From positions 1 to 11,999 of the forward strand of contig JAIORP010000176.1 of NCBI GenBank assembly GCA_021108075.1: a stretch of 11,999 bases of DNA, in the 5' to 3' direction. The position numbers and the translations under genes are program-made. The stretch's first letter is position 1, and each line of letters begins with the position of its first letter. The notes below the pieces were generated by a model, which ran no database searches, had not been told where the DNA came from, and saw nothing but the letters and a program-made list of their open reading frames with translations. Positions 4,168-11,730 of this stretch are shown here, in pieces. This stretch comes from Candidatus Omnitrophota bacterium. Its GTDB lineage: Bacteria; Omnitrophota; Gorgyraeia; Zapsychrales; Zapsychraceae.

Positions 4168-4199
4168 TTTTTATTGTTAAAGTTTGATTTGAGAGTAAA

Positions 4200-4239
4200 T
4201 GAAAAGCAGCTGTTTTTGATAAAAAATAGCTGCTTTTCA
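4200..4239. terminator. Long, nearly perfect A/T-rich inverted repeat (about 18 bp per arm, loop 'gata') 33 nt after the flotillin stop; probable bidirectional terminator, or a protein-binding palindrome
   Basis: aaaagcagctgttttt-gata-aaaaatagctgctttt: 16 consecutive pairs with one G-U, extended by flanking g-c and t-a pairs. The 3' arm ends in uuuu. The stem is A/U-rich, so stability is moderate. Confidence 0.5.
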
Positions 4240-4342
4240 AGGTTATTTTAGCGAAGATAATTTTCTAGGAATTATTAAATAAATTAATATATAATTTAAT
4301 TTAAAACTATATTTTCTAATAGTTTGCGGAAAAATAGTTCTC

Positions 4343-4371
4343 TTGACATTATTTATATAAAATGCTATATA
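4343..4371 (+). promoter_or_regulatory. Candidate promoter for the giant gene (TTGACA-17-TATATA)
   Basis: Perfect -35 TTGACA at 4343-4348, 17-nt spacer, -10 TATATA at 4366-4371. This implies a ~280-nt 5' leader before ATG 4659. Other weaker A/T-rich -10-like sequences lie closer to the gene, so the TSS is not certain. Confidence 0.4.
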
Positions 4372-4415
4372 TTTATAGGATGAAAGCGTTTCCAAGATTT
4401 GGCGTTTTTCAATTT

Positions 4416-4431
4416 ATTGAAATCATTCAAT
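4416..4431. promoter_or_regulatory. Inverted repeat ATTGAA-atca-TTCAAT embedded in direct repeats of TTCAATTTA (4408-4416, 4426-4434); candidate operator in the leader of the giant gene
   Basis: Seen directly: 6-bp perfect arms with a 4-bp spacer, overlapping two copies of TTCAATTTA spaced 18 bp apart and a third partial copy (acaatttta at 4435-4443). Confidence 0.3.
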
Positions 4432-4658
4432 TTACAATTTTATTTTCATTATTATGATTAAGTCAAAAATCACCAATTTCGACCTATCTATATCGTCGGT
4501 CTATTCATCTACTCCCCGCCAAAGAAAAACATCGTATCATATTAAATACCAACAATTTACATTAATTCGTTTTTCCATTATTTTTTATTCCGTTACGGTT
4601 TTATACATATATATTATTAATAGATTCATCCTTTTTTAAAACAGGGGGACAAAAGGTC

Positions 4659-4781
4659 ATGAGTATTAACACTTTTAAAGCAAATTCAAATTTACCTCAT
4701 CGCGTATTATCTGTTTTTGTTAGCTTGATTTTCATTTGCAATTTTGTGATGCCTCTATCAATGGTTCAGGCGCAAAGTGCT
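4659..4781 (+). other. Predicted Sec signal peptide of the giant protein (~38-41 aa, extended n-region)
   Basis: MSINTFKANSNLPHR (basic n-region), VLSVFVSLIFICNFVMPLSMV (h-region), then VQA|QSA|G with small residues at -1/-3. Confidence 0.6.
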
Positions 4782-7700
4782 GGCACGGTTCTAGGTTTAC
4801 CAGAACCAGGCAAAATGGTCGAAATGACTGACGCCTATGCTGCACCAGCTGTCATTGGATTGGCCATTCACGCCGATGATCCTTTGGAATTTGATTTTAT
4901 TTTGGACATGGGCGAAGAAACACTTGATGATGCTAATATCAGGTCCGTTTCTGAAAAACTCATTAAATATTTTCTTGCCGGGCTCACAGTTCCCCCTGAA
5001 GATCTGTGGGTCAACTTATCGCCATATGAACAAGGCAAGATCATCCCTAACGCGTTGGGTGATACGGAAATGGGCCGTGATTTGCTCGCGCAGGATTATG
5101 TCCTTAAGCAAATTTCCGCGTCCATCATGCACCCGGAAAAAGAAGTTGGTGAGCAGTTTTGGAACAAGATCTACGAAAAGGCATTAGAAATTTATGGTAC
5201 GATCGATATTCCGACCAACACTTTCAACAAAATTTGGGTTATTCCGGACGAAGCTTTTGTCTACGAGTCAAATGGTGTTGCTTATGTTGTTAATAGCCAT
5301 TTGAAAGTCATGCTTGAAGAAGACTATCTTGTCATGAAAGAAAACATGGACAGCGATGAGTTTGGAGCTCAGGACATTGAGGATGCAGATGTGGAAAGAA
5401 TTAACAAGCTCTCGACGGACATTTATCGGGAAGTTTTACTGCCCGTTATTGAGAAAGAAGTCAATGAAGGCAAACTTTTCGCTAACCTTCGTCAAATTTA
5501 TAACTCCATGATCCTCGCCTCATGGTATAAGGAAGCGTTGAGGGAAAGCATTTTAACGCGGGTGTATGCCAATAAGAATTTAACGTCAGGGATCAATGTG
5601 AGTGATGTCCTTGTTAGCAACAAGATTTATGAGCAGTATGTTTCTTCTTTCGAGAAAGGCGCGTACAACATCCTAAAGAAAGAATTTGACCCGAAGACAA
5701 AAGGGATAATCACCCGACGCTATTTTTCCGGCGGTTTTTACGGCGGAGGAATTGAGCGTGAAGTCGGCAACAAGATGGCCCGCAGTTCTTCGACGAACTT
5801 AGTCAGCGAATTTACAACAAACCAGTCAGACGTGAAAGTTACATTCAGGGATAGTTTGGCGGCAACAAATTTATCGCCCCGTAACAAGGCTAAATTGTTT
5901 TCCGCGATGACGGACTTGGCCAAGCAACAACCCGGTGTTTTTACGAACCAAAAACGCTTGTCGAATGCCTTGCAACAACGGTTGCCAGCCATTAATTTTA
6001 CTCCGGAAGTTATGACAGCGATTAACGATGTTGCCAAAACACAGTTGACGAAAAAGATCAGCAAAGATTTTACTCCGCAACTGGAGCGTAACATTGAAGT
6101 ATCCTCGTTACCGCAGCCTCAAAAAATTGAAATACGGCAAACTGTTTCAGCGATCGCTAAGTCCGTTCCTTTTGCTGTTGCGAGCAGTGAGTCTGTTTTG
6201 GCTGATGAACTCATTAAACGTGGGGTCTCGCCGCAAACCGTTAACCAGGCCCGTACCCAGGGTGTTTTAGCGCGAGTGGTCACTGACTACAAGGCTGTCT
6301 CAAATAAAATTAATCAGGCTAATTTGGCGAGTTTACCGAAACAACGTCAGACGCAGGTTATTAATTTTATGGATAAGTTAGAAGATAAAAGAGAAGATAA
6401 AAGGCTCATGCGCGTTAACACAAAATTAAGTGAGTCTCAAAGAACAGGCACCGACGGAGCGATGTTGATGGCGATGGCTCCTGCGGCATATGCTGATGAT
6501 TACAGCGTTAATGAAATCGTCGGGGCTTTAGAGCAATCGCGACAATCACCACGGACCCTGGAGACACGATTGGTTCAATCAGGGTATACTCCGCAACGTG
6601 CCGCTGTTGTTGTTGAGGCCGCGCAAAGTTTTTACAACAGCAATGAACAGGCCATTAGAACGGCAAAAACACCGGAAGATTTAATTGTTTTAGCCGTTAA
6701 TGATAATCGTCTGGACTTTCGGAACATTGCACCGATGATCATGAATCCGAGTTTTGTCTCCTCCGCCCAGGTGTTGCCGGATTATTCAAACAAAGCGGCC
6801 ATCATGAACGCGGGTTATCAGCAAACAATGGGTAATGCCATGAGTTTAGATGACGCTTCCATAAAGCAAAGTCTTATGGATACGGGCATGCCTGAATCAA
6901 CTGCGTCAAAGAAGGTGAAAGACTGGAACACGTTTAAAACACGTCAGCCCGTCGAAGTTCAAAACCGGCTTTCTTCCATGACCCTTCCTGAAGTGTTGAC
7001 GATTGCACCAACGTCAGCGACTCCGGTTGTGTTAGACGTTTTTTCAGCCACGTCTTCAACAGGTTCAACGTCTGAAATCGGCAGCATGTCCAGACAGATA
7101 TCACGTGATGCTTTCGCGCATACGTTTACAATGTCACAGCAAAGCATTGAAAGCGGATTAATGCTGGCAACAGATAGCGCGGACACGGCACAATCGACAG
7201 CACAGCTATTTAAAGACGTTATATCCCGTCCAGGGGCGGAAAGGGCCTTTGTCGGCGCGGATACCATGCCGAAGTTTATCAGCAACATGATTTCAGAAGG
7301 AGTGATTAAACCTAATGAAGGGAAACAATTAAAACCAATGCTGGAAGCAAATTTTCAATCTTTTTCTGCCGCTCAAGCAGACACACAACCAATGCTTACC
7401 ACCGGTGTCAGTTTGGAACGAAAAGCCATTGACACCATCAAGGCCAATATTTCTTCTCCGACTGTGATCGCCAAAACAATTACTCCTGTTGTTGGTCGAG
7501 AAAAAGCCATTGAAATCTCAAATAAGATCGCTGCGAATGAATCAACCGTAAGGGCGATCGCATCATTACCGGATCTTGTTACGGCTATTCCAGAGACAGC
7601 GCCGTTACTTAAATCAGACGCAACAATTGCCCTGGCGATACAAAGTAAGGATGTGCATATCGCGGATATTGCCGCATATCAAACACGTCAAAAAGGATCA

Positions 7701-10700
7701 GCCGACATCTTCAGGCAAGTTGACAGCAAGTCTTATATTAGTTCTGCGTTGAGATCCGGATCATCTTCACTCTCATCCAGCCAAAAAGAACAAGTGGCTA
7801 ATTTTGTTGGTAAGCAGTTAAAAGACAACCCGGAATTAAAGCAACGGATTGTCAACCAGGGTATGGACGCATTAACGGAACTGGCCGCGCAACAACCAAT
7901 GGTCGCGCAATTGTTTAATGCCGACGTGACATCAAGACTCAATCAAGCTGCCCGCGGCAACAGAAGCTCCGAACAACAAGTTGCGATCGAACAAGTTGGC
8001 ATGGGAACGCTGACCCAATTATCAAGTGCGACAGCCGCGGATATCAGACCGATGGTCAGTAATATCAGCCAAAGGGTCGATCCGAAAAATGCGCCGTCTA
8101 GAACAAAGGAGATGATGAACGATGTTTCAGCCTTTTTGTCGTCACCAGAGGTTAAAACGGAAATGGCGGCCTTATCTCAAGGACGTTCTTCCGTTAGCAA
8201 TGTTTTGGATAAAGCCCCATCACCGCGTGTTAAAGAAACGATGGCATTGATTATGAATGATCCAGATATGTCATCAACCCTGGCTTCCCGTTCGGGGGTG
8301 CTACCACAAACAGTTGTCCGGGATGTCGTTTCTTTTTCAAATAAACAAGCAGCCAGTATAGTCAATACTGGTGATGTAAAGATATTCCAAAAAGCTTTAG
8401 CGAATGCGAATGTTCCTGTTCGTGATATTACAACATTAACGAACGTGATGGACCGCGTTGTGCTAAGCGGTACGCAAATATCACAGATGAGTGACCTGAT
8501 GAATGTTGCATCAACAGATACAGAAAGAATGGCAATTGTATCCTTGATGACGGATACAAAGGCCATCTCGTCATTAAGTTCAACAGCATCGAATTTGTCA
8601 AGTCGGATCGGGTTGCGTGATATCAATGCTCCGTCAAAGATCAACTTTTATGCCACGCAGGCCTTGAAGGATTTAGATGAAGACACGATGACGGAAGTTT
8701 TGCAAAATGTTGTTGAGACTCCGCGACAGGCAAGACAAATTGCCCGAACGGTTGTTGATATGCGGCAACGCGGTCGAATTACGGACAACACGTTAAGCTT
8801 ATCTGATGTTGTTTCCAACGCGACGTCAACGGCTTCAGCGAAGCAATTGTCGACGTTAGGGGATAAAAAGGTCCAGGTCGCGCTTTATCAAGCCGGACAG
8901 CTACAAAGCAACAGTACCTATACACCGCAACTGTTTGACGCGGCTCAGCGAACAGCCTTGCAGGTCGCGGTGAATATGGACCAGAATCAAGTGGAACAAA
9001 TGGTCACGCAAATAGCAAAGACGACCCTGCCGAACGTGAGCACTACTGATATTAAAAGGGCATCACAATCTCTCAGCCGCACGTTTGAAGGTCCTGAGTT
9101 TAAAGCCGCGTTATCCCGGGGAAAAGTTTCTTCCTTAAAGGATGTCGCCCAATATGCGTCTGACGGCGATAAAATTAATCTGGCGATGTTTTCTCAACCT
9201 GTGATAGTCAATGCGTTTGTTAATAAGGCAACCTCTACCGGCTCGTCAGACTATGTTAGCTTGGGCCGAATGGAGCTCGGAAGTTTTCAACAATTGCAAC
9301 AGATGAGTGGTCGTGATGTTCGGAATTTCATGATCGATAAAGGGGTTGATGCAACAACCGCACGTCAAATGGAAAAATCATTCTCGCCAGCTATCTTCAA
9401 GGGCGTCAGCAATGTTGGTGAGTTAACATCTAAAGTTGCTAACTTACCCGATATGCCGGAACAACAAAAACGTGACATCGTTCAAATCGCTCAGACAGCT
9501 GTTATTGGCATTGAAAACAAGAGTTTACCGGTGTCCGCTTCACAGCAATCAGCGATTGTTTCAAATACGTACCAGAAGGCCGTGACAGGCATCAGCCTTA
9601 ACCTTGATAAGCCTGAAATCATTCAAGCGAACTTGGTTGCTTCAGGTCTCAGCCCAATGCAGGCCATTAACACCGTTAATACCTTGAGTGATTTTGCCCA
9701 GTCACAAGCTGGTCAGGCGGCATTATCAACAGCTAAATCACCCATGGATTTTGTTATGCAGGCACCGCAGGATTTTCGGAAAGATTTAACGCCGATTGCC
9801 GATACCAAATTTACGGCATTGATGGCTAATGAAGCCCCGACATTAACAGCCCCGCAAATGGCTTCCGTCCGCACGTCTTACAAAACGGCTGGAAAGACAT
9901 TATCCTCGATATCCAGCACGAATGTTTCGAACTTCAAAGGTCAATTGGGTCGATCCGGTGCATCAAAGGCAGACATCGATATGACTGCCGATGCTGTTGT
10001 GGCGATCAACAGAAGCATGACTGCCATTGAACTGGATACCGCGACACCACAAACGTATATCGCTAAAGCAAGAACACCGCAGGAAGCCGTTGCGATGGTG
10101 AATGTCTTCAACAATAGTAAAGCGGTTGTCAGTTTGGCGTCTCAAAACATGAACATCTCTGCCGGTGAAGCCACTCAAATTTCCATAGCAAACCGTCAAT
10201 TGACATCAAACGCTTTTCAAGGTTTGGTTATGGATGGGGCGGCAAATATTCGTTCAAACGCGATCGGGGCTTTAAAAGCTTCGGGACAGTCCAGAGAGAT
10301 CGGGCGTGTTTCGGACGCGTTGAGAAAAGTGGAAGCCAGTCCGCAGGCAATGGCTCAATTTGTGCAATCAGGTTCTATTTCCAGATTACCTGAAATCGCT
10401 ATGGCGAATAATTTGGATGTGAATATTAATGACTTCAGCCCATTGATGGACCCTGATATCATGTCTAACCTCAGTTCCTCATTTGATCGCGCGACGTCAA
10501 ACCAGGCTTCATTGGCGCGTGAGATTATTGTTAATGACACCATTCAAGCGATGCCTAAACTGAAATCGAATGAAGTGCGCGACGTTGTCGTCAAGATTTT
10601 CGGAGAAAGCAACGCGGGTCAAGTTATGGCCAATTATGACAACTTTAAAAACACACCCGGTATTGGCCGAAAGATCCGGTCCGGCGCTTCGATGAATGAA

Positions 10701-11675
10701 GTTTTAGACTTTGTCGCCGAATCTTCACCTTCAGTCGTTCCTCAGATAGCCGTGATGTTGAACAGCCCGCAATTCGTTGAGCTAGCGGCAAAGACGTCAG
10801 GAAATATTTCTCCCGGCGTCGCGCGCAATACATTGGTTATGGAAAACGCGAGCGCGACAGCGACGTTTCAGGCATCTATCACAGAAAGAAATATGCCTAT
10901 TGTGAGCGCTGCGTTGACAGAAAACGGTTACAGCCGCAGCAATGTCAATGAGTTTAGATCAACGATGACGAACATTATGGATAGAGAAGGTGGTGCTGTT
11001 AATATCAGCAGCCCGGCAGACATTCTCCAATATGCCCGGACACCGCAGGAAGTACAGTCCTTAATGCCGATGACCAATTCTAAAGTTATCTCTTCTTTAG
11101 GTCGCAGGGCTATTGTGAGAAAAGCATCAATCGTGCAGAACATTGAATTTGAAACAGCAAGCCGTATTTCCATCACGAGTGAAACGGAGTTGTCTCGTCC
11201 GATCACTAAAGTTTACGGGGCGTCAGCCGCTCAAGAGAGTATTAATGCTTTAAGTCGTGTCAAGGCGAACCCGGCTAAAATGGCCCGTTTGCGTAGCATC
11301 ACAAATACGGCTGAATTAATGAACTTGGCTGATACTGATCAAGATGCTGTTGCTCTGGCACGTTTTGGGAATACAGCTGTTATGAATGAGTTCCTAAAAC
11401 CGATCATGAATGATCAGATTCGATTAGCCCGACAAAATAAAAAGGCAGCGACAGGGAAGAAAGGTGGTATCGACCTGAACCCGGTCTTACTGGATATGGA
11501 AATTCAACGCGATGGATCAGGTGTTCCATTACCTGTTAACCAGCAAATCCTGGATGATATTTTGATTGATGGTTTTTCACCTATTATCAATAATATTATT
11601 CCTTTAGGAAACGCGACAGGTATTCTGCATATTTCTTCACAGGTCAAAGGTGACTTGAGCCAGAAGCATAACTAG
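4659..11675 (+). CDS. Giant secreted protein of unknown function (2,338 aa): signal peptide, ~330-aa N-terminal globular domain, ~1,900-aa Cys-free S/T/A/Q/N/M-rich region with degenerate helical repeats
   Basis: Single uninterrupted 7,017-nt ORF with SD aggggga 9 nt upstream of the ATG. The N-terminus has a basic n-region (KANSNLPHR), a hydrophobic core (VLSVFVSLIFICNFVMPLSMV) and an AXA-like site (VQA/QSA). No Cys residues occur after the signal peptide. The motif (S/T)P(Q/E) recurs at helix starts (FTPEV, FTPQL, VSPQT, YTPQR, KTPED, YTPQL, ETPRQ, ARTPQE x2). There is a clear internal duplication: aa ~1804-1850 'ARTPQEAVAMVNVFNNSKAVVSLASQNMNISAGEATQISIANRQLTS' versus aa ~2126-2170 'ARTPQEVQSLMPMTNSKVISSLGRRAIVRKASIVQNIEFETASRISITS'. 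It is terminated by a strong intrinsic terminator. No LPXTG, SLH, choline-binding, autotransporter beta-barrel or RTX motifs were seen. Confidence 0.85.
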   Translation: MSINTFKANSNLPHRVLSVFVSLIFICNFVMPLSMVQAQSAGTVLGLPEPGKMVEMTDAYAAPAVIGLAIHADDPLEFDFILDMGEETLDDANIRSVSEKLIKYFLAGLTVPPEDLWVNLSPYEQGKIIPNALGDTEMGRDLLAQDYVLKQISASIMHPEKEVGEQFWNKIYEKALEIYGTIDIPTNTFNKIWVIPDEAFVYESNGVAYVVNSHLKVMLEEDYLVMKENMDSDEFGAQDIEDADVERINKLSTDIYREVLLPVIEKEVNEGKLFANLRQIYNSMILASWYKEALRESILTRVYANKNLTSGINVSDVLVSNKIYEQYVSSFEKGAYNILKKEFDPKTKGIITRRYFSGGFYGGGIEREVGNKMARSSSTNLVSEFTTNQSDVKVTFRDSLAATNLSPRNKAKLFSAMTDLAKQQPGVFTNQKRLSNALQQRLPAINFTPEVMTAINDVAKTQLTKKISKDFTPQLERNIEVSSLPQPQKIEIRQTVSAIAKSVPFAVASSESVLADELIKRGVSPQTVNQARTQGVLARVVTDYKAVSNKINQANLASLPKQRQTQVINFMDKLEDKREDKRLMRVNTKLSESQRTGTDGAMLMAMAPAAYADDYSVNEIVGALEQSRQSPRTLETRLVQSGYTPQRAAVVVEAAQSFYNSNEQAIRTAKTPEDLIVLAVNDNRLDFRNIAPMIMNPSFVSSAQVLPDYSNKAAIMNAGYQQTMGNAMSLDDASIKQSLMDTGMPESTASKKVKDWNTFKTRQPVEVQNRLSSMTLPEVLTIAPTSATPVVLDVFSATSSTGSTSEIGSMSRQISRDAFAHTFTMSQQSIESGLMLATDSADTAQSTAQLFKDVISRPGAERAFVGADTMPKFISNMISEGVIKPNEGKQLKPMLEANFQSFSAAQADTQPMLTTGVSLERKAIDTIKANISSPTVIAKTITPVVGREKAIEISNKIAANESTVRAIASLPDLVTAIPETAPLLKSDATIALAIQSKDVHIADIAAYQTRQKGSADIFRQVDSKSYISSALRSGSSSLSSSQKEQVANFVGKQLKDNPELKQRIVNQGMDALTELAAQQPMVAQLFNADVTSRLNQAARGNRSSEQQVAIEQVGMGTLTQLSSATAADIRPMVSNISQRVDPKNAPSRTKEMMNDVSAFLSSPEVKTEMAALSQGRSSVSNVLDKAPSPRVKETMALIMNDPDMSSTLASRSGVLPQTVVRDVVSFSNKQAASIVNTGDVKIFQKALANANVPVRDITTLTNVMDRVVLSGTQISQMSDLMNVASTDTERMAIVSLMTDTKAISSLSSTASNLSSRIGLRDINAPSKINFYATQALKDLDEDTMTEVLQNVVETPRQARQIARTVVDMRQRGRITDNTLSLSDVVSNATSTASAKQLSTLGDKKVQVALYQAGQLQSNSTYTPQLFDAAQRTALQVAVNMDQNQVEQMVTQIAKTTLPNVSTTDIKRASQSLSRTFEGPEFKAALSRGKVSSLKDVAQYASDGDKINLAMFSQPVIVNAFVNKATSTGSSDYVSLGRMELGSFQQLQQMSGRDVRNFMIDKGVDATTARQMEKSFSPAIFKGVSNVGELTSKVANLPDMPEQQKRDIVQIAQTAVIGIENKSLPVSASQQSAIVSNTYQKAVTGISLNLDKPEIIQANLVASGLSPMQAINTVNTLSDFAQSQAGQAALSTAKSPMDFVMQAPQDFRKDLTPIADTKFTALMANEAPTLTAPQMASVRTSYKTAGKTLSSISSTNVSNFKGQLGRSGASKADIDMTADAVVAINRSMTAIELDTATPQTYIAKARTPQEAVAMVNVFNNSKAVVSLASQNMNISAGEATQISIANRQLTSNAFQGLVMDGAANIRSNAIGALKASGQSREIGRVSDALRKVEASPQAMAQFVQSGSISRLPEIAMANNLDVNINDFSPLMDPDIMSNLSSSFDRATSNQASLAREIIVNDTIQAMPKLKSNEVRDVVVKIFGESNAGQVMANYDNFKNTPGIGRKIRSGASMNEVLDFVAESSPSVVPQIAVMLNSPQFVELAAKTSGNISPGVARNTLVMENASATATFQASITERNMPIVSAALTENGYSRSNVNEFRSTMTNIMDREGGAVNISSPADILQYARTPQEVQSLMPMTNSKVISSLGRRAIVRKASIVQNIEFETASRISITSETELSRPITKVYGASAAQESINALSRVKANPAKMARLRSITNTAELMNLADTDQDAVALARFGNTAVMNEFLKPIMNDQIRLARQNKKAATGKKGGIDLNPVLLDMEIQRDGSGVPLPVNQQILDDILIDGFSPIINNIIPLGNATGILHISSQVKGDLSQKHN

Positions 11676-11699
11676 AGATTGTTTTGATTCAATTTAAAA

Positions 11700-11730
11700 A
11701 GCCTCCGCTGCGTAAGCGGGGGCTTTTTTT
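11700..11730 (+). terminator. Rho-independent terminator of the giant gene
   Basis: a-gcctccgc-tgcgtaa-gcgggggc-t forms a 9-bp GC-rich stem (one G-U) with a 7-nt loop, followed by a U7 tract (ttttttt at 11724-11730). It starts 25 nt after the TAG stop. Confidence 0.85.

Follow-up and report, generated by a model that had tools for sequence, protein, structure and literature searches.

The giant gene and its expression signals

The window analyzed here, an 11,999-nt stretch of Candidatus Omnitrophota DNA, contains a single uninterrupted 7-kb ORF at positions 4659..11675 of the plus strand, on which all features described below also lie. The ORF starts with ATG and forms a complete CDS of 2,338 amino acids plus a stop codon, and its product is identical to protein P0001 (ENA contig NODE_224). 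A Shine-Dalgarno-like AGGGGGA, read directly at 4643..4649, is located 9 nt 5' of the ATG, and an intrinsic terminator composed of a 14-bp hairpin and U7 follows at 11696..11730 (dG -23 kcal/mol, z = -4.8), with equal stability reached in 0 of 200 shuffles. At 4200..4239 a terminator-like hairpin with an 18-pair stem and then a T-rich tail marks the end of the flotillin gene and sets the giant gene apart from it. We conclude that the 7-kb gene is real and intact and forms a transcription unit of its own; the initial annotation, which described one long ORF with a strong Shine-Dalgarno sequence, a strong terminator and the character of a self-contained unit, is borne out on these points.

The two genes are separated by an AT-rich 491-nt intergenic region (4168..4658), a putative leader that is 76% identical overall to the corresponding region of L002, a relative with 79% identity. 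Conservation is highest in a patch at 4301-4450 (82% identity to L002), inside which a near-consensus TTGACA box is found at 4344-4349. Promoter-like matches were not enriched across 4168..4658 (7 versus 4.3 ± 1.8 in shuffles), and no RNA element in this leader was matched in Rfam. By its sequence, this region is presumed to hold a promoter 5' of the giant gene.

Comparison with L002 shows that the whole length of the 2,338-aa protein is under strong purifying selection, with a dN/dS of 0.03-0.06 over the full length and of 0.02-0.06 in every segment. Along the middle region, termed the passenger below, pN is ∼0.08 versus a pS of ∼0.72. Synonymous divergence is lower in the N-terminal domain, where pS is 0.41 versus 0.72. 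In L002 the gene is split at the aa 1526 position by a +1-nt indel, and dN/dS is also 0.02-0.06 3' of this indel. The initial annotation had raised the prospect of an ORF split by frameshifts; in the window it is unbroken and constrained throughout.

A Sec-type leader precedes a predicted Cys-free mature protein

The first 38 residues (4659..4772) have the pattern of a Sec-type signal peptide, with a K/R-containing n-region, an h-region at aa 16-34 and the cleavage motif MPLSMVQA|QS at aa 31-40, and we predict that they function as one. No other segment reaches the transmembrane-level hydrophobicity seen here (KD 2.24). The same leader design is common to 186 members of the family described below: the n-region net charge is +3 (98% positive), and a Pro-Pro helix breaker precedes an x-A|Q site that resembles a signal peptidase I site. 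In the 2,338-aa protein the pattern likewise places the conserved x-A|Q site directly 5' of the N-terminal domain. Export would proceed by threading of the unfolded precursor through SecYEG, with removal of the leader after Ala38. Because no further transmembrane segment is present, the mature protein would then be soluble. The long signal peptide noted earlier thus corresponds to a 38-aa signal-peptide-like N-terminus ending in VQA|QS. The product had also been described as Cys-free and nearly devoid of Trp, which agrees with our counts: the sole Cys is residue 27, within the signal peptide, and four of the five Trp residues are in the N-terminal domain.

The N-terminal domain defines a large Omnitrophota family

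Downstream of the leader, aa 39-359 (4773..5735) form an alpha/beta domain that ends in an invariant YFSGG. This N-domain matches at least 118 members with 50-55% identity (BLASTP E 1e-110 to 1e-133), and HMMER E values range from ∼1e-121 to 8e-137, with 118 relatives among the matches listed. All 76 invariant columns of the domain are present in the 2,338-aa protein, as are the motifs LNLPxPG, KLIKYFLASLT, WVNLSPYE, TEMGRDLLAQDY, NTFNKIWIVP, LKVMLEEDY, EIEKEVNEG and RKYFSGG. A profile search retrieved the N-domain in at least 8,256 representatives of 50%-identity clusters, always as a single copy and always N-terminally. The family occupies at least 581 loci, with at least five paralogs in single MAGs. 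The genome loci listed belong to Candidatus Omnitrophota MAGs, except for some that bear only the label 'uncultured Planctomycetales' or 'bacterium', and by these sequences the family appears confined to Candidatus Omnitrophota, with several copies in a genome. The 2,338-aa protein is a full-length member of this very large paralogous family.

Scanned against Pfam and NCBIfam, the whole protein and 23 N-domains returned nothing beyond sub-threshold noise, and the N-domain had no match in the PDB by sequence in single-sequence and profile searches. Foldseek against the PDB returned no fold match (best TM 0.18). AF2 models were moderate overall (pLDDT 58-63); the N-domain reached 63 when modelled alone, and blocks of it reached up to 93 within the model of P0130, a short member. 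The initial annotation had called this domain unclassifiable, which holds with respect to Pfam, NCBIfam and the PDB; it is no orphan, since it defines a family of 8,256 representatives. The end assigned to the domain was placed correctly, with the invariant YFSGG at aa 355-359. Also supported is the earlier view that the family is apparently undescribed, as we found no description of the N-domain and C-terminal motif in the searchable literature, motif strings included.

A conserved motif near the C-terminus

A second family-defining element is located at aa 2267-2319 (11457..11615; KKGGIDLNPVLLDMEIQRDGSGVPLPVNQQILDDILIDGFSPIINNIIPLGNA), 19 residues from the end of the protein. This C-motif of ∼55 aa is conserved as GGIDLNP..LDLQIKRDGNGVPLP..GF.PVIINITPV.NLPLLLG, and the 2,338-aa protein carries the membership consensus GGIDLNP..LDLQIKRDGxGVPLP..GFxPVIINxxP. 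In pairwise BLASTP it matches the C-termini of 118 members (P0005: 57% identity, E 3e-17). Of 220 members, 185 carry it, in each case close to the C-terminus, and the residues that follow it (counted from the equivalent of aa 2316) number 29 in the median and 90 at most. In the 2,338-aa protein these end in a short polar tail (aa 2320-2338; 11616..11672) that is not conserved, tails being variable in sequence among members. The statement that the protein has no recognizable anchor had passed over this motif.

With a KD of 1.07 the C-motif is not hydrophobic enough for a transmembrane segment. Two amphipathic beta-like segments are predicted in it with high confidence in the AF2 model of P0130, in which the pLDDT across aa 641-700 is 81, 89, 68, 67, 84 and 68 while the flanks are at 30-40. 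A profile search with the C-motif returned only short ORFs, mostly probable gene-call fragments; several are on contigs of ∼0.5-2 kb and two start inside the motif. Two possible stand-alone C-motif ORFs were the only candidates from this search for use of the motif outside the family. Some C-motif-only ORFs lack a signal peptide and are located beside cytoplasmic two-component genes.

The passenger is lineage-specific, helical and strongly constrained

Between the two conserved modules lies an orphan passenger (aa 360-2266; 5736..11456) that is Cys-free, aromatic-poor and rich in S, T, A, N and Q. Searching aa 376-2265 against the 118 family members with phmmer gave no match, and a search of 5.8e9 proteins recovered nothing beyond P0001 and P0002. 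The 1,890-aa middle thus has a single, near-identical relative as its homolog in that set. The passenger is thus a lineage-specific segment of 1,900 aa that is strongly constrained and has no enzyme domain. Hydrophobic periodicity over aa 376-2265 has its maximum at 95-100 degrees (z ∼6) and a deficit at 155-160 degrees, the periodicity of amphipathic helices, which supports the helical character proposed for this region at the outset. The recurrence of an (S/T)P(Q/E) motif was likewise confirmed: [ST]P[QE] occurs 12 times from aa 376 to the end versus 1.7 ± 1.3 expected, a count reached in 0 of 2,000 shuffles.

The same region had been described as ∼1,900 aa of repeats, possibly a solenoid. 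What we observe is three weak pairwise ancient duplications and no clear repeat array. Smith-Waterman alignment pairs aa 544-784 (6288..7010) with aa 1580-1797 (9396..10049) at a score of 111, aa 1103-1310 (7965..8588) with aa 1947-2151 (10497..11111) at 124, and, most weakly, aa 1792-1899 (10032..10355; 'ARTPQEAVAMV...') with aa 2114-2232 (10998..11354; 'ARTPQEVQSLM...') at 74-80 (z ∼5); the shuffle null (mean 31, sd 6.3, max 65) was obtained with 120-aa windows and the three scores come from longer ones, so that the comparison is approximate. The third pair is the duplication of nt 10068 and nt 11034 that had been called unambiguous and ∼320 aa long; it amounts to a local alignment of ∼105 aa (score 74, z = 5.2). 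Jackhmmer seeded with the duplicated segments did not grow beyond pairs; it recovered aa 1580-1797 as the partner of aa 544-784 and did not recover the partner in the third pair. As BLASTP of the protein against itself gave no match and Jackhmmer yielded pairs only, we rejected a repeat array. No HEAT, ARM or TPR alpha-solenoid was matched in Pfam and self-comparison revealed no short period and no tandem unit of 30-50 aa. The region thus belongs to no recognizable repeat or solenoid family, and the middles of other members are unrelated to it.

Passengers and neighborhoods of other family members

The passengers of different members are mutually unrelated. Many are of cytoplasmic type, including hexokinase, PGI, PGK, PGM, UDP-glucose pyrophosphorylase, response regulators and radical SAM, and further types comprise radical SAM/B12, DnaJ, REC, GGDEF and a sigma-54 activator. 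The passenger of P0207 retains its own Tat-like leader and lipobox.

When the ORFs of the upstream 3 kb were clustered at 78 family loci, no neighbor was conserved in more than six loci. The largest cluster is on the opposite strand, and its identifiable members are trp-biosynthesis-like. Tandem family members are present at 13 or more of the 78 loci, at which no secretion or injection genes are conserved beside the family members. We considered the flotillin gene as a conserved partner and rejected it, as these loci show only tandem paralogs and incidental synteny. Neither the two genes downstream on L001 nor the two upstream ORFs of unknown function gave a useful Pfam match or a PilZ.

A proposed exported envelope protein with a shared handle

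A complete member of the family consists of a Sec-type signal peptide of ∼36-40 aa, one domain of ∼320 aa, an unrelated passenger and one motif of ∼55 aa. We propose, with a probability of roughly 0.55, that the 2,338-aa protein is a Sec-exported envelope or surface protein in which the conserved ends are a shared handle and the helical middle is a lineage-specific structural or contact element. Together, the N-domain and C-motif would provide this handle, by which every member is docked, sorted or assembled at a single envelope location or machine, while each member's specific function would be supplied by its passenger. The C-motif may dock onto the N-domain by a beta-strand, a possibility that would agree with its high-confidence pLDDT in the AF2 model of the short member. 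An extracellular coat or a part in host contact has been suggested for large Omnitrophota proteins (PMC10066038; bioRxiv 10.1101/2023.11.21.568195). The non-enzymatic helical passenger is most likely an elongated structural, spacer or contact element in the envelope or coat of a host-dependent nanobacterium, and the adhesin, matrix or scaffold function suggested in the initial annotation is plausible. Two observations argue against an envelope protein: the passengers of many other members ordinarily depend on the cytoplasm and are hard to reconcile with a simple periplasmic or surface site, and leaderless C-motif-only ORFs adjoin cytoplasmic two-component genes.

Those same cytoplasm-type passengers behind canonical Sec leaders could instead indicate an effector delivered to prey or host, which we consider unlikely. 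Here the conserved ends would be a translocation module that carries the variable middle across the envelope of the attached host, where cytoplasm-type passengers would work and the helical passenger would act inside or on the prey. Omnitrophota have been proposed to live as predators or parasites, and secretion and pilus loci lie close to their giant genes (bioRxiv 10.1101/2023.11.21.568195; PMC10066038); the layout of conserved flanks and a variable center is present. However, the argument is purely by analogy, the neighborhoods described above hold no conserved secretion or injection genes, and the 2,338-aa protein has neither a pore-forming or amphipathic membrane-insertion segment nor an identifiable effector domain.

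Also improbable is that the N-domain and C-motif are the two halves of a hitherto unrecognized, phylum-wide sorting and assembly system for an extracytoplasmic coat or for export to prey. The halves would then dock either inside a single chain or, head-to-tail, from one chain to the next, and the invariant Gly-Gly on the passenger side of each module (YFSGG / passenger / GGIDLN) may be a processing site. Thousands of passengers would be exported, complete glycolytic and glycogen-metabolism enzymes among them, and new passengers would be captured by recombination at the conserved coding ends. The reduced pS of the N-domain and the Tat-like leader and lipobox of P0207 point to such capture.

A protein held at the inner membrane by an uncleaved N-terminal anchor, with its bulk on the cytoplasmic face, is decidedly unlikely. 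Such proteins would organize metabolism and signaling along the membrane in cells of very small size, and the 2,338-aa member would be a non-enzymatic scaffold or spacer. This would suit passengers that are overwhelmingly cytoplasmic-type enzymes and response regulators as well as a leaderless C-motif-only ORF that adjoins histidine kinase and REC genes, and a 2026 preprint makes the case that long Omnitrophota proteins in many instances have an inner-membrane anchor and cytoplasmic content (10.64898/2026.06.07.730766). The leader itself argues otherwise: given its n-region charge the positive-inside rule predicts N-in/C-out, and Sec leaders that are cleaved typically have such a Pro-Pro helix breaker and conserved small-x-Ala|Gln site. 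The mature part of the 2,338-aa protein also has no Cys and no cytoplasmic domain.

We give still less credence to head-to-tail assembly, in which donor strands of the C-motif would enter the N-domain of the next molecule in a pilin-like strand exchange. Varied passengers would thereby be polymerized into a coat or fiber, with the 2,338-aa member as a long helical spacer and stand-alone C-motif ORFs possibly serving as caps. Each protein has exactly one N-domain and one C-motif at its extreme ends; the conservation of both modules across paralogs and the phylum is unusually strong, as would be needed for all members to fit one another, and the two predicted beta-like segments of the C-motif could act as donor strands. 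This scheme is nevertheless inferential throughout and has no precedent in the phylum, and any docking could as well be intramolecular. Finally, a pseudogene or assembly artefact, as the split L002 copy and a middle region with no homologs elsewhere might suggest, is effectively refuted by the low dN/dS everywhere, including past the L002 indel, and by the unbroken ORF, the intact family modules and the gene's own Shine-Dalgarno-like box and terminator.

Comparison with known systems

In MARTX toxins, conserved N- and C-terminal regions that are thought to be a delivery device flank variable central domains. The family resembles them in having conserved ends around a modular, highly variable middle, but MARTX toxins use type I secretion without a Sec leader and have glycine-rich repeat flanks and a cysteine-protease domain, none of which is present here, and there is no sequence similarity. 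The family also resembles T9SS cargo and autotransporters, which combine a Sec leader and a variable passenger with a conserved element at the C-terminus that decides envelope fate. It differs from these in that the C-motif is ∼55 aa with a variable tail and matches neither Por_Secre_tail nor the autotransporter beta-barrel, and neither system has a conserved 320-aa N-terminal domain. No autotransporter, T9SS, LPXTG, SLH or choline-binding feature was matched in Pfam or NCBIfam at E ≤ 0.1, and the 2,338-aa protein has no C-terminal transmembrane segment with a basic tail. LapA/RTX adhesins, to which the adhesin idea of the initial annotation corresponds, are likewise giant and Cys-poor, and in them a long extender links an N-terminal module to a C-terminal signal, both conserved. 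In contrast to these, the 2,338-aa protein has no RTX nonapeptide repeats (HemolysinCabind/RTX had no match in Pfam) and no Ig-like (BIg/Cadherin-type) extender repeats, carries a Sec leader instead of using type I secretion, and has a middle that is helical rather than beta-rich.

The closest parallels are from the same phylum, in the Omnitrophota giants and archaeovorins (West-Roberts et al. 2023, bioRxiv 10.1101/2023.11.21.568195; Seymour et al. 2023, PMC10066038; 2026 preprint 10.64898/2026.06.07.730766). The giants have a predicted N-terminal signal peptide and then an N-terminal region 'lacking identifiable domains', and the passengers of our family (PGM, PPDK/PEP-utilisers, REC, HEAT, radical SAM, NUDIX, methyltransferases, starch synthase) match their reported repertoire; these papers contain no description of the ∼320-aa N-domain or the GGIDLNP... 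motif. The giants are 10,000-30,000 aa or more compared with 2,338 aa here, and the defining archaeovorin set of ≥30,000 aa has many transmembrane helices whereas our protein has a single hydrophobic segment, the leader. The glycosyl transferase, methyltransferase, glycosyl hydrolase, peptidase, SAM-dependent methylase and NUDIX domains of archaeovorins are absent from the 2,338-aa protein (Pfam/NCBIfam), but archaeovorin-type domains occur in other members of the N-domain/C-motif family.

Omnitrophota are ubiquitous, uncultured, host-dependent nanobacteria whose oversized proteins are known but not understood. The N-domain and C-motif, which are unmodelled in curated databases and undescribed in the literature searched, bracket thousands of unrelated proteins behind canonical Sec leaders. 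What looked like an orphan gene can thereby be assigned to a family, with a passenger that has diverged fast yet is under strong constraint. The conserved modules could be used for antibodies or tags, for searches for partner machinery and for family-wide HMMs in annotation. The family and the giants share one puzzle, namely cytoplasm-type enzymes predicted outside the cell, and the conserved modules provide a concrete handle on where such enzymes in large Omnitrophota proteins work.

The giant gene is intact and constrained

The giant protein, the 2,338-aa product of the ORF at 4659..11675 (+), belongs to a family of Omnitrophota proteins, has the architecture of that family, is under constraint along its length, and carries an export-type leader (aa 1-38) and an N-domain (aa 39-359) ahead of a helical orphan passenger (aa 360-2266) and a C-terminal motif (C-motif, aa 2267-2319). 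The 7-kb ORF reported in the initial annotation is indeed a single unbroken frame of 2,338 codons, and an identical protein (P0001) is found on a 13.9-kb ENA contig. A 79%-identical relative, the JGI contig L002, is colinear with the window from the flotillin gene onward. Codon-wise comparison of the giant gene with L002 gave pN 0.03, pS 0.41 and dN/dS 0.053 for the N-domain, and pN 0.06-0.10, pS 0.66-0.77 and dN/dS about 0.02-0.06 for the remaining segments. Since synonymous change is saturated while non-synonymous change is ~8% over the 7-kb frame, we conclude that the gene is functional and not the pseudogene that the initial annotation had considered. L002 has a single additional A at the aa 1526 site (L002:6560-6640, window about 9236), which divides the ortholog into two called ORFs of 1,559 aa and 548+ aa. 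Because the frame past this base is equally constrained, the extra A is probably either an error of sequencing or a frameshift lesion that arose very recently.

The N-domain DNA (4773-5783) is 89% identical to L002 versus 77-80% elsewhere (5784-10879 compared), with roughly half the synonymous divergence (pS 0.41 versus 0.72). Gene conversion among paralogs, or RNA- or codon-level constraint on this conserved 5' module, could produce the low value.

The giant gene is also delimited as a transcription unit of its own, in line with the earlier proposal of a self-contained unit. The flotillin gene upstream ends in a terminator-like hairpin at 4200-4239 (+), beyond which come 491 nt of AT-rich intergenic DNA; an AGGGGGA box sits 9 nt 5' of the ATG, and a 14-bp hairpin with U7 (dG -23 kcal/mol, z -4.8) lies 3' of the stop codon. 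The best-conserved part of the intergenic region (4301-4450, 82%) holds a near-consensus TTGACA box at 4344-4349 and a TATATT-like box ~19 nt further downstream. This pair, which is not among the matches listed by a generic promoter scan, is a plausible candidate promoter that would give a 5' leader of ~280 nt. No Rfam family matched anywhere in the window.

The upstream genes in the window encode flotillin, NUDIX and HTH proteins, the flotillin being related only distantly to FloT (142 bits versus a cutoff of 700). Two small ORFs lie 5' of the flotillin gene (1525-2127 and 2131-2715); one gives a weak match of phage CII/HTH-like type, whose E value of 5e-5 does not reach the Pfam cutoff, and the other, of 194 aa, has no match whatsoever. 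Genes 3' of the giant gene on contig L001 gave no informative match and no PilZ.

The N-domain defines a very large family

The N-terminal domain had been called unclassifiable, which is correct insofar as Pfam, NCBIfam and PDB sequence searches return no match, but it is by no means unique. In 5.8 billion proteins searched there were at least 2,174 matches, all of which except the near-identical pair are confined to aa ~1-360, with ~50% identity and E values of 1e-120 to 1e-137. HMMER, run exhaustively with a profile of 23 sequences, detected the domain in 8,256 representatives of 50%-identity clusters, 6,606 of them at E <= 1e-30. Among 150 matches listed, each protein has one copy of it, beginning no further in than about residue 100 and mostly near residue 35-40. 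Scanning one genome per species confirmed at least 581 family loci; the 80 listed come from Candidatus Omnitrophota MAGs, from MAGs with the generic label 'uncultured Planctomycetales', or from two entries named plain 'bacterium', and single MAGs can hold five or more copies.

In the N-domain alignment 76 columns are invariant, and many of these hold polar residues. AlphaFold2 (AF2) modeled the domain alone as an alpha/beta fold with moderate confidence (pLDDT 63, pTM 0.62), and within a short family member blocks of it reach pLDDT 93. Foldseek comparison of the model with the PDB gave no convincing fold match (TM <= 0.18).

Family members share a Sec-type leader

The segment preceding the N-domain follows one common design in 186 family members: an n-region of net charge +3 (positive in 98%), a 15-aa core of mean KD 2.3 followed by a Pro-Pro breaker, and a site (S/V/Y)-x-A|Q a few residues ahead of a conserved LNLPxPG. 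From this pattern we infer a classical Sec/signal-peptidase-I leader. In the giant protein aa 16-34 is the sole segment with transmembrane-level hydrophobicity (KD 2.24; next best 1.41), and the protein would be exported by Sec with cleavage after Ala38. The Cys-free, nearly Trp-free composition noted earlier is confirmed in that the single Cys is residue 27, within the leader, and four of the five Trp fall in the N-domain.

A conserved motif ends the protein

In BLASTP alignments with 120 proteins, aa ~2267-2320 of the giant protein matched the extreme C-terminus of nearly all subjects as a second hit at 45-65% identity. The initial annotation had seen no recognisable anchor and overlooked this motif, whose consensus is GGIDLNPxLLDLQIKRDGNGVPLPxxQQPIxxMxIxGFxPVIINITPVxNLPLLLG. 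The C-motif occurs in 185 of 220 family members, invariably at the protein end. The tail behind it varies in sequence, is polar or acidic, and has a median length of 29 residues and a maximum of 90. Most members that lack the motif are comparatively short sequences, possibly truncated. The C-motif matches no known sorting domain in Pfam, and its KD of 1.07 in the giant protein is too low for a transmembrane segment. The smallest members that are complete span 681-750 aa, so the architecture comprises leader, N-domain, passenger of at least 270 aa, C-motif and tail.

When AF2 modeled P0130, a member of 731 aa, the C-motif (aa 641-700) had pLDDT values of 81, 89, 68, 67, 84 and 68 between flanks of 30-40, a predicted pattern that supports a structural role. 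The C-motif may dock onto the N-domain, the only other well-folded part of this model, which would fit the pLDDT. An invariant Gly-Gly lies on the passenger side of both modules (YFSGG ends the N-domain, GGIDLN starts the C-motif), and these borders could be hinges or processing sites.

The C-motif is also found apart from the N-domain. An 80-aa ORF containing little else and having no signal peptide is conserved on two contigs (L083:6001-6243 and L084:869-1111), directly 3' of histidine kinase and stand-alone response-regulator genes. A ~290-codon stop-to-stop frame ending in the C-motif, again without the N-domain (e.g. L081:1-911, L082:1-882), occurs on 13 contigs; for three that were listed, ~640-670 nt separate the gene from a contig end, where an upstream repeat could have broken the assembly.

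The passenger is an orphan helical region

Residues 376-2265 gave no phmmer hit against 118 family members, and among 5.8 billion proteins matched only P0001 and P0002; passengers are unrelated between family members. This region has few aromatics, is rich in S/T/A/N/Q and is near neutral. Its hydrophobic periodicity has a maximum at 95-100 degrees (z about 6), with depletion at 155-160 degrees, indicating amphipathic alpha-helices. The recurrent (S/T)P(Q/E) motif previously described holds up, with 12 occurrences past aa 375 versus 1.7 expected (0/2,000 shuffles).

Internal similarity of the passenger is real, if modest, with 5.7% of 120-aa window pairs above the 99th percentile of the shuffle null. 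Three long pairwise duplications score 111, 124 and 80 versus a null maximum of 65, an approximate comparison because that null comes from 120-aa windows. What had been called a clear 320-aa duplication spans only about 105 aa (z 5.2) and is the weakest of the three. None of the duplicated segments grew to a multi-copy repeat in jackhmmer. In what it observed in the sequence as a whole, the initial annotation was largely right, its errors being the 320-aa duplication and the missing anchor.

Passengers and neighbors across the family

Precomputed and new Pfam scans show passengers strongly biased to sugar-phosphate/glycogen metabolism (UDP-glucose pyrophosphorylase, PGM, PGI, PGK, hexokinase, aldolase, GAPDH, PEP-utilising enzymes, isocitrate lyase, starch synthase) and signalling (REC, GGDEF, HEAT). 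Radical SAM/B12, DnaJ and methyltransferases also occur, and many members have no recognised passenger domain. Either P0037 (1,502 aa) or P0081 (3,991 aa) has a precomputed hit to PF18962, which we take to be the T9SS-type C-terminal sorting domain (Por_Secre_tail); the other has a very long precomputed list with many P-loop NTPase-type families and, presumably, methylmalonyl-CoA mutase and carboxyl transferase. These hits indicate highly heterogeneous passengers. In P0207 (749 aa), residues about 470-495 of the passenger hold an internal Tat-like motif plus lipobox (SRRNFLKAAGGLLFLSFLESC), and it looks as if a whole exported lipoprotein gene, leader included, had been captured between N-domain and C-motif.

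In the upstream 3 kb of 78 family loci, 13 had a second member immediately 5' in the same orientation, with the C-motif as its 3' end, which indicates tandem paralog arrays. The remaining recurrent neighbors occur at 3-6 loci apiece, numbers too low to point to a partner. Genes for flotillin, NUDIX and HTH proteins, not conserved beside family members at these loci, were rejected as partners.

Proposed role and relation to known proteins

We favor the view that the giant protein is an elongated, non-enzymatic envelope, coat or contact element, in which N-domain and C-motif would be a handle shared across the family. Cytoplasm-type passengers elsewhere in the family, together with leaderless ORFs consisting of the C-motif only, argue that more than simple surface display is involved. 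Delivery of the protein as an effector into prey is unlikely, and a scaffold on the cytoplasmic face, for which the leader would have to stay as an uncleaved anchor, somewhat more so. Head-to-tail polymerization is the least probable of these. The giant protein is a new, atypical member, set apart by its orphan helical passenger, of a very large Omnitrophota family, and its main interest lies at the level of that family, which is unrepresented in the curated databases searched and undescribed in the searchable literature.

N-domain and C-motif strings do not occur in searchable literature, and neither module is described in two preprints (10.1101/2023.11.21.568195; 10.64898/2026.06.07.730766) or in Seymour et al. 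2023 (PMC10066038). Both preprints present the paradox that domains of the kind found in the passengers are predicted to be extracellular (10.1101/2023.11.21.568195; 10.64898/2026.06.07.730766). The Archaeovorin/long Omnitrophota proteins that they describe have the same domain repertoire as the family passengers. The giant protein is a variant within the already known kind of large, exported multidomain proteins of Omnitrophota.
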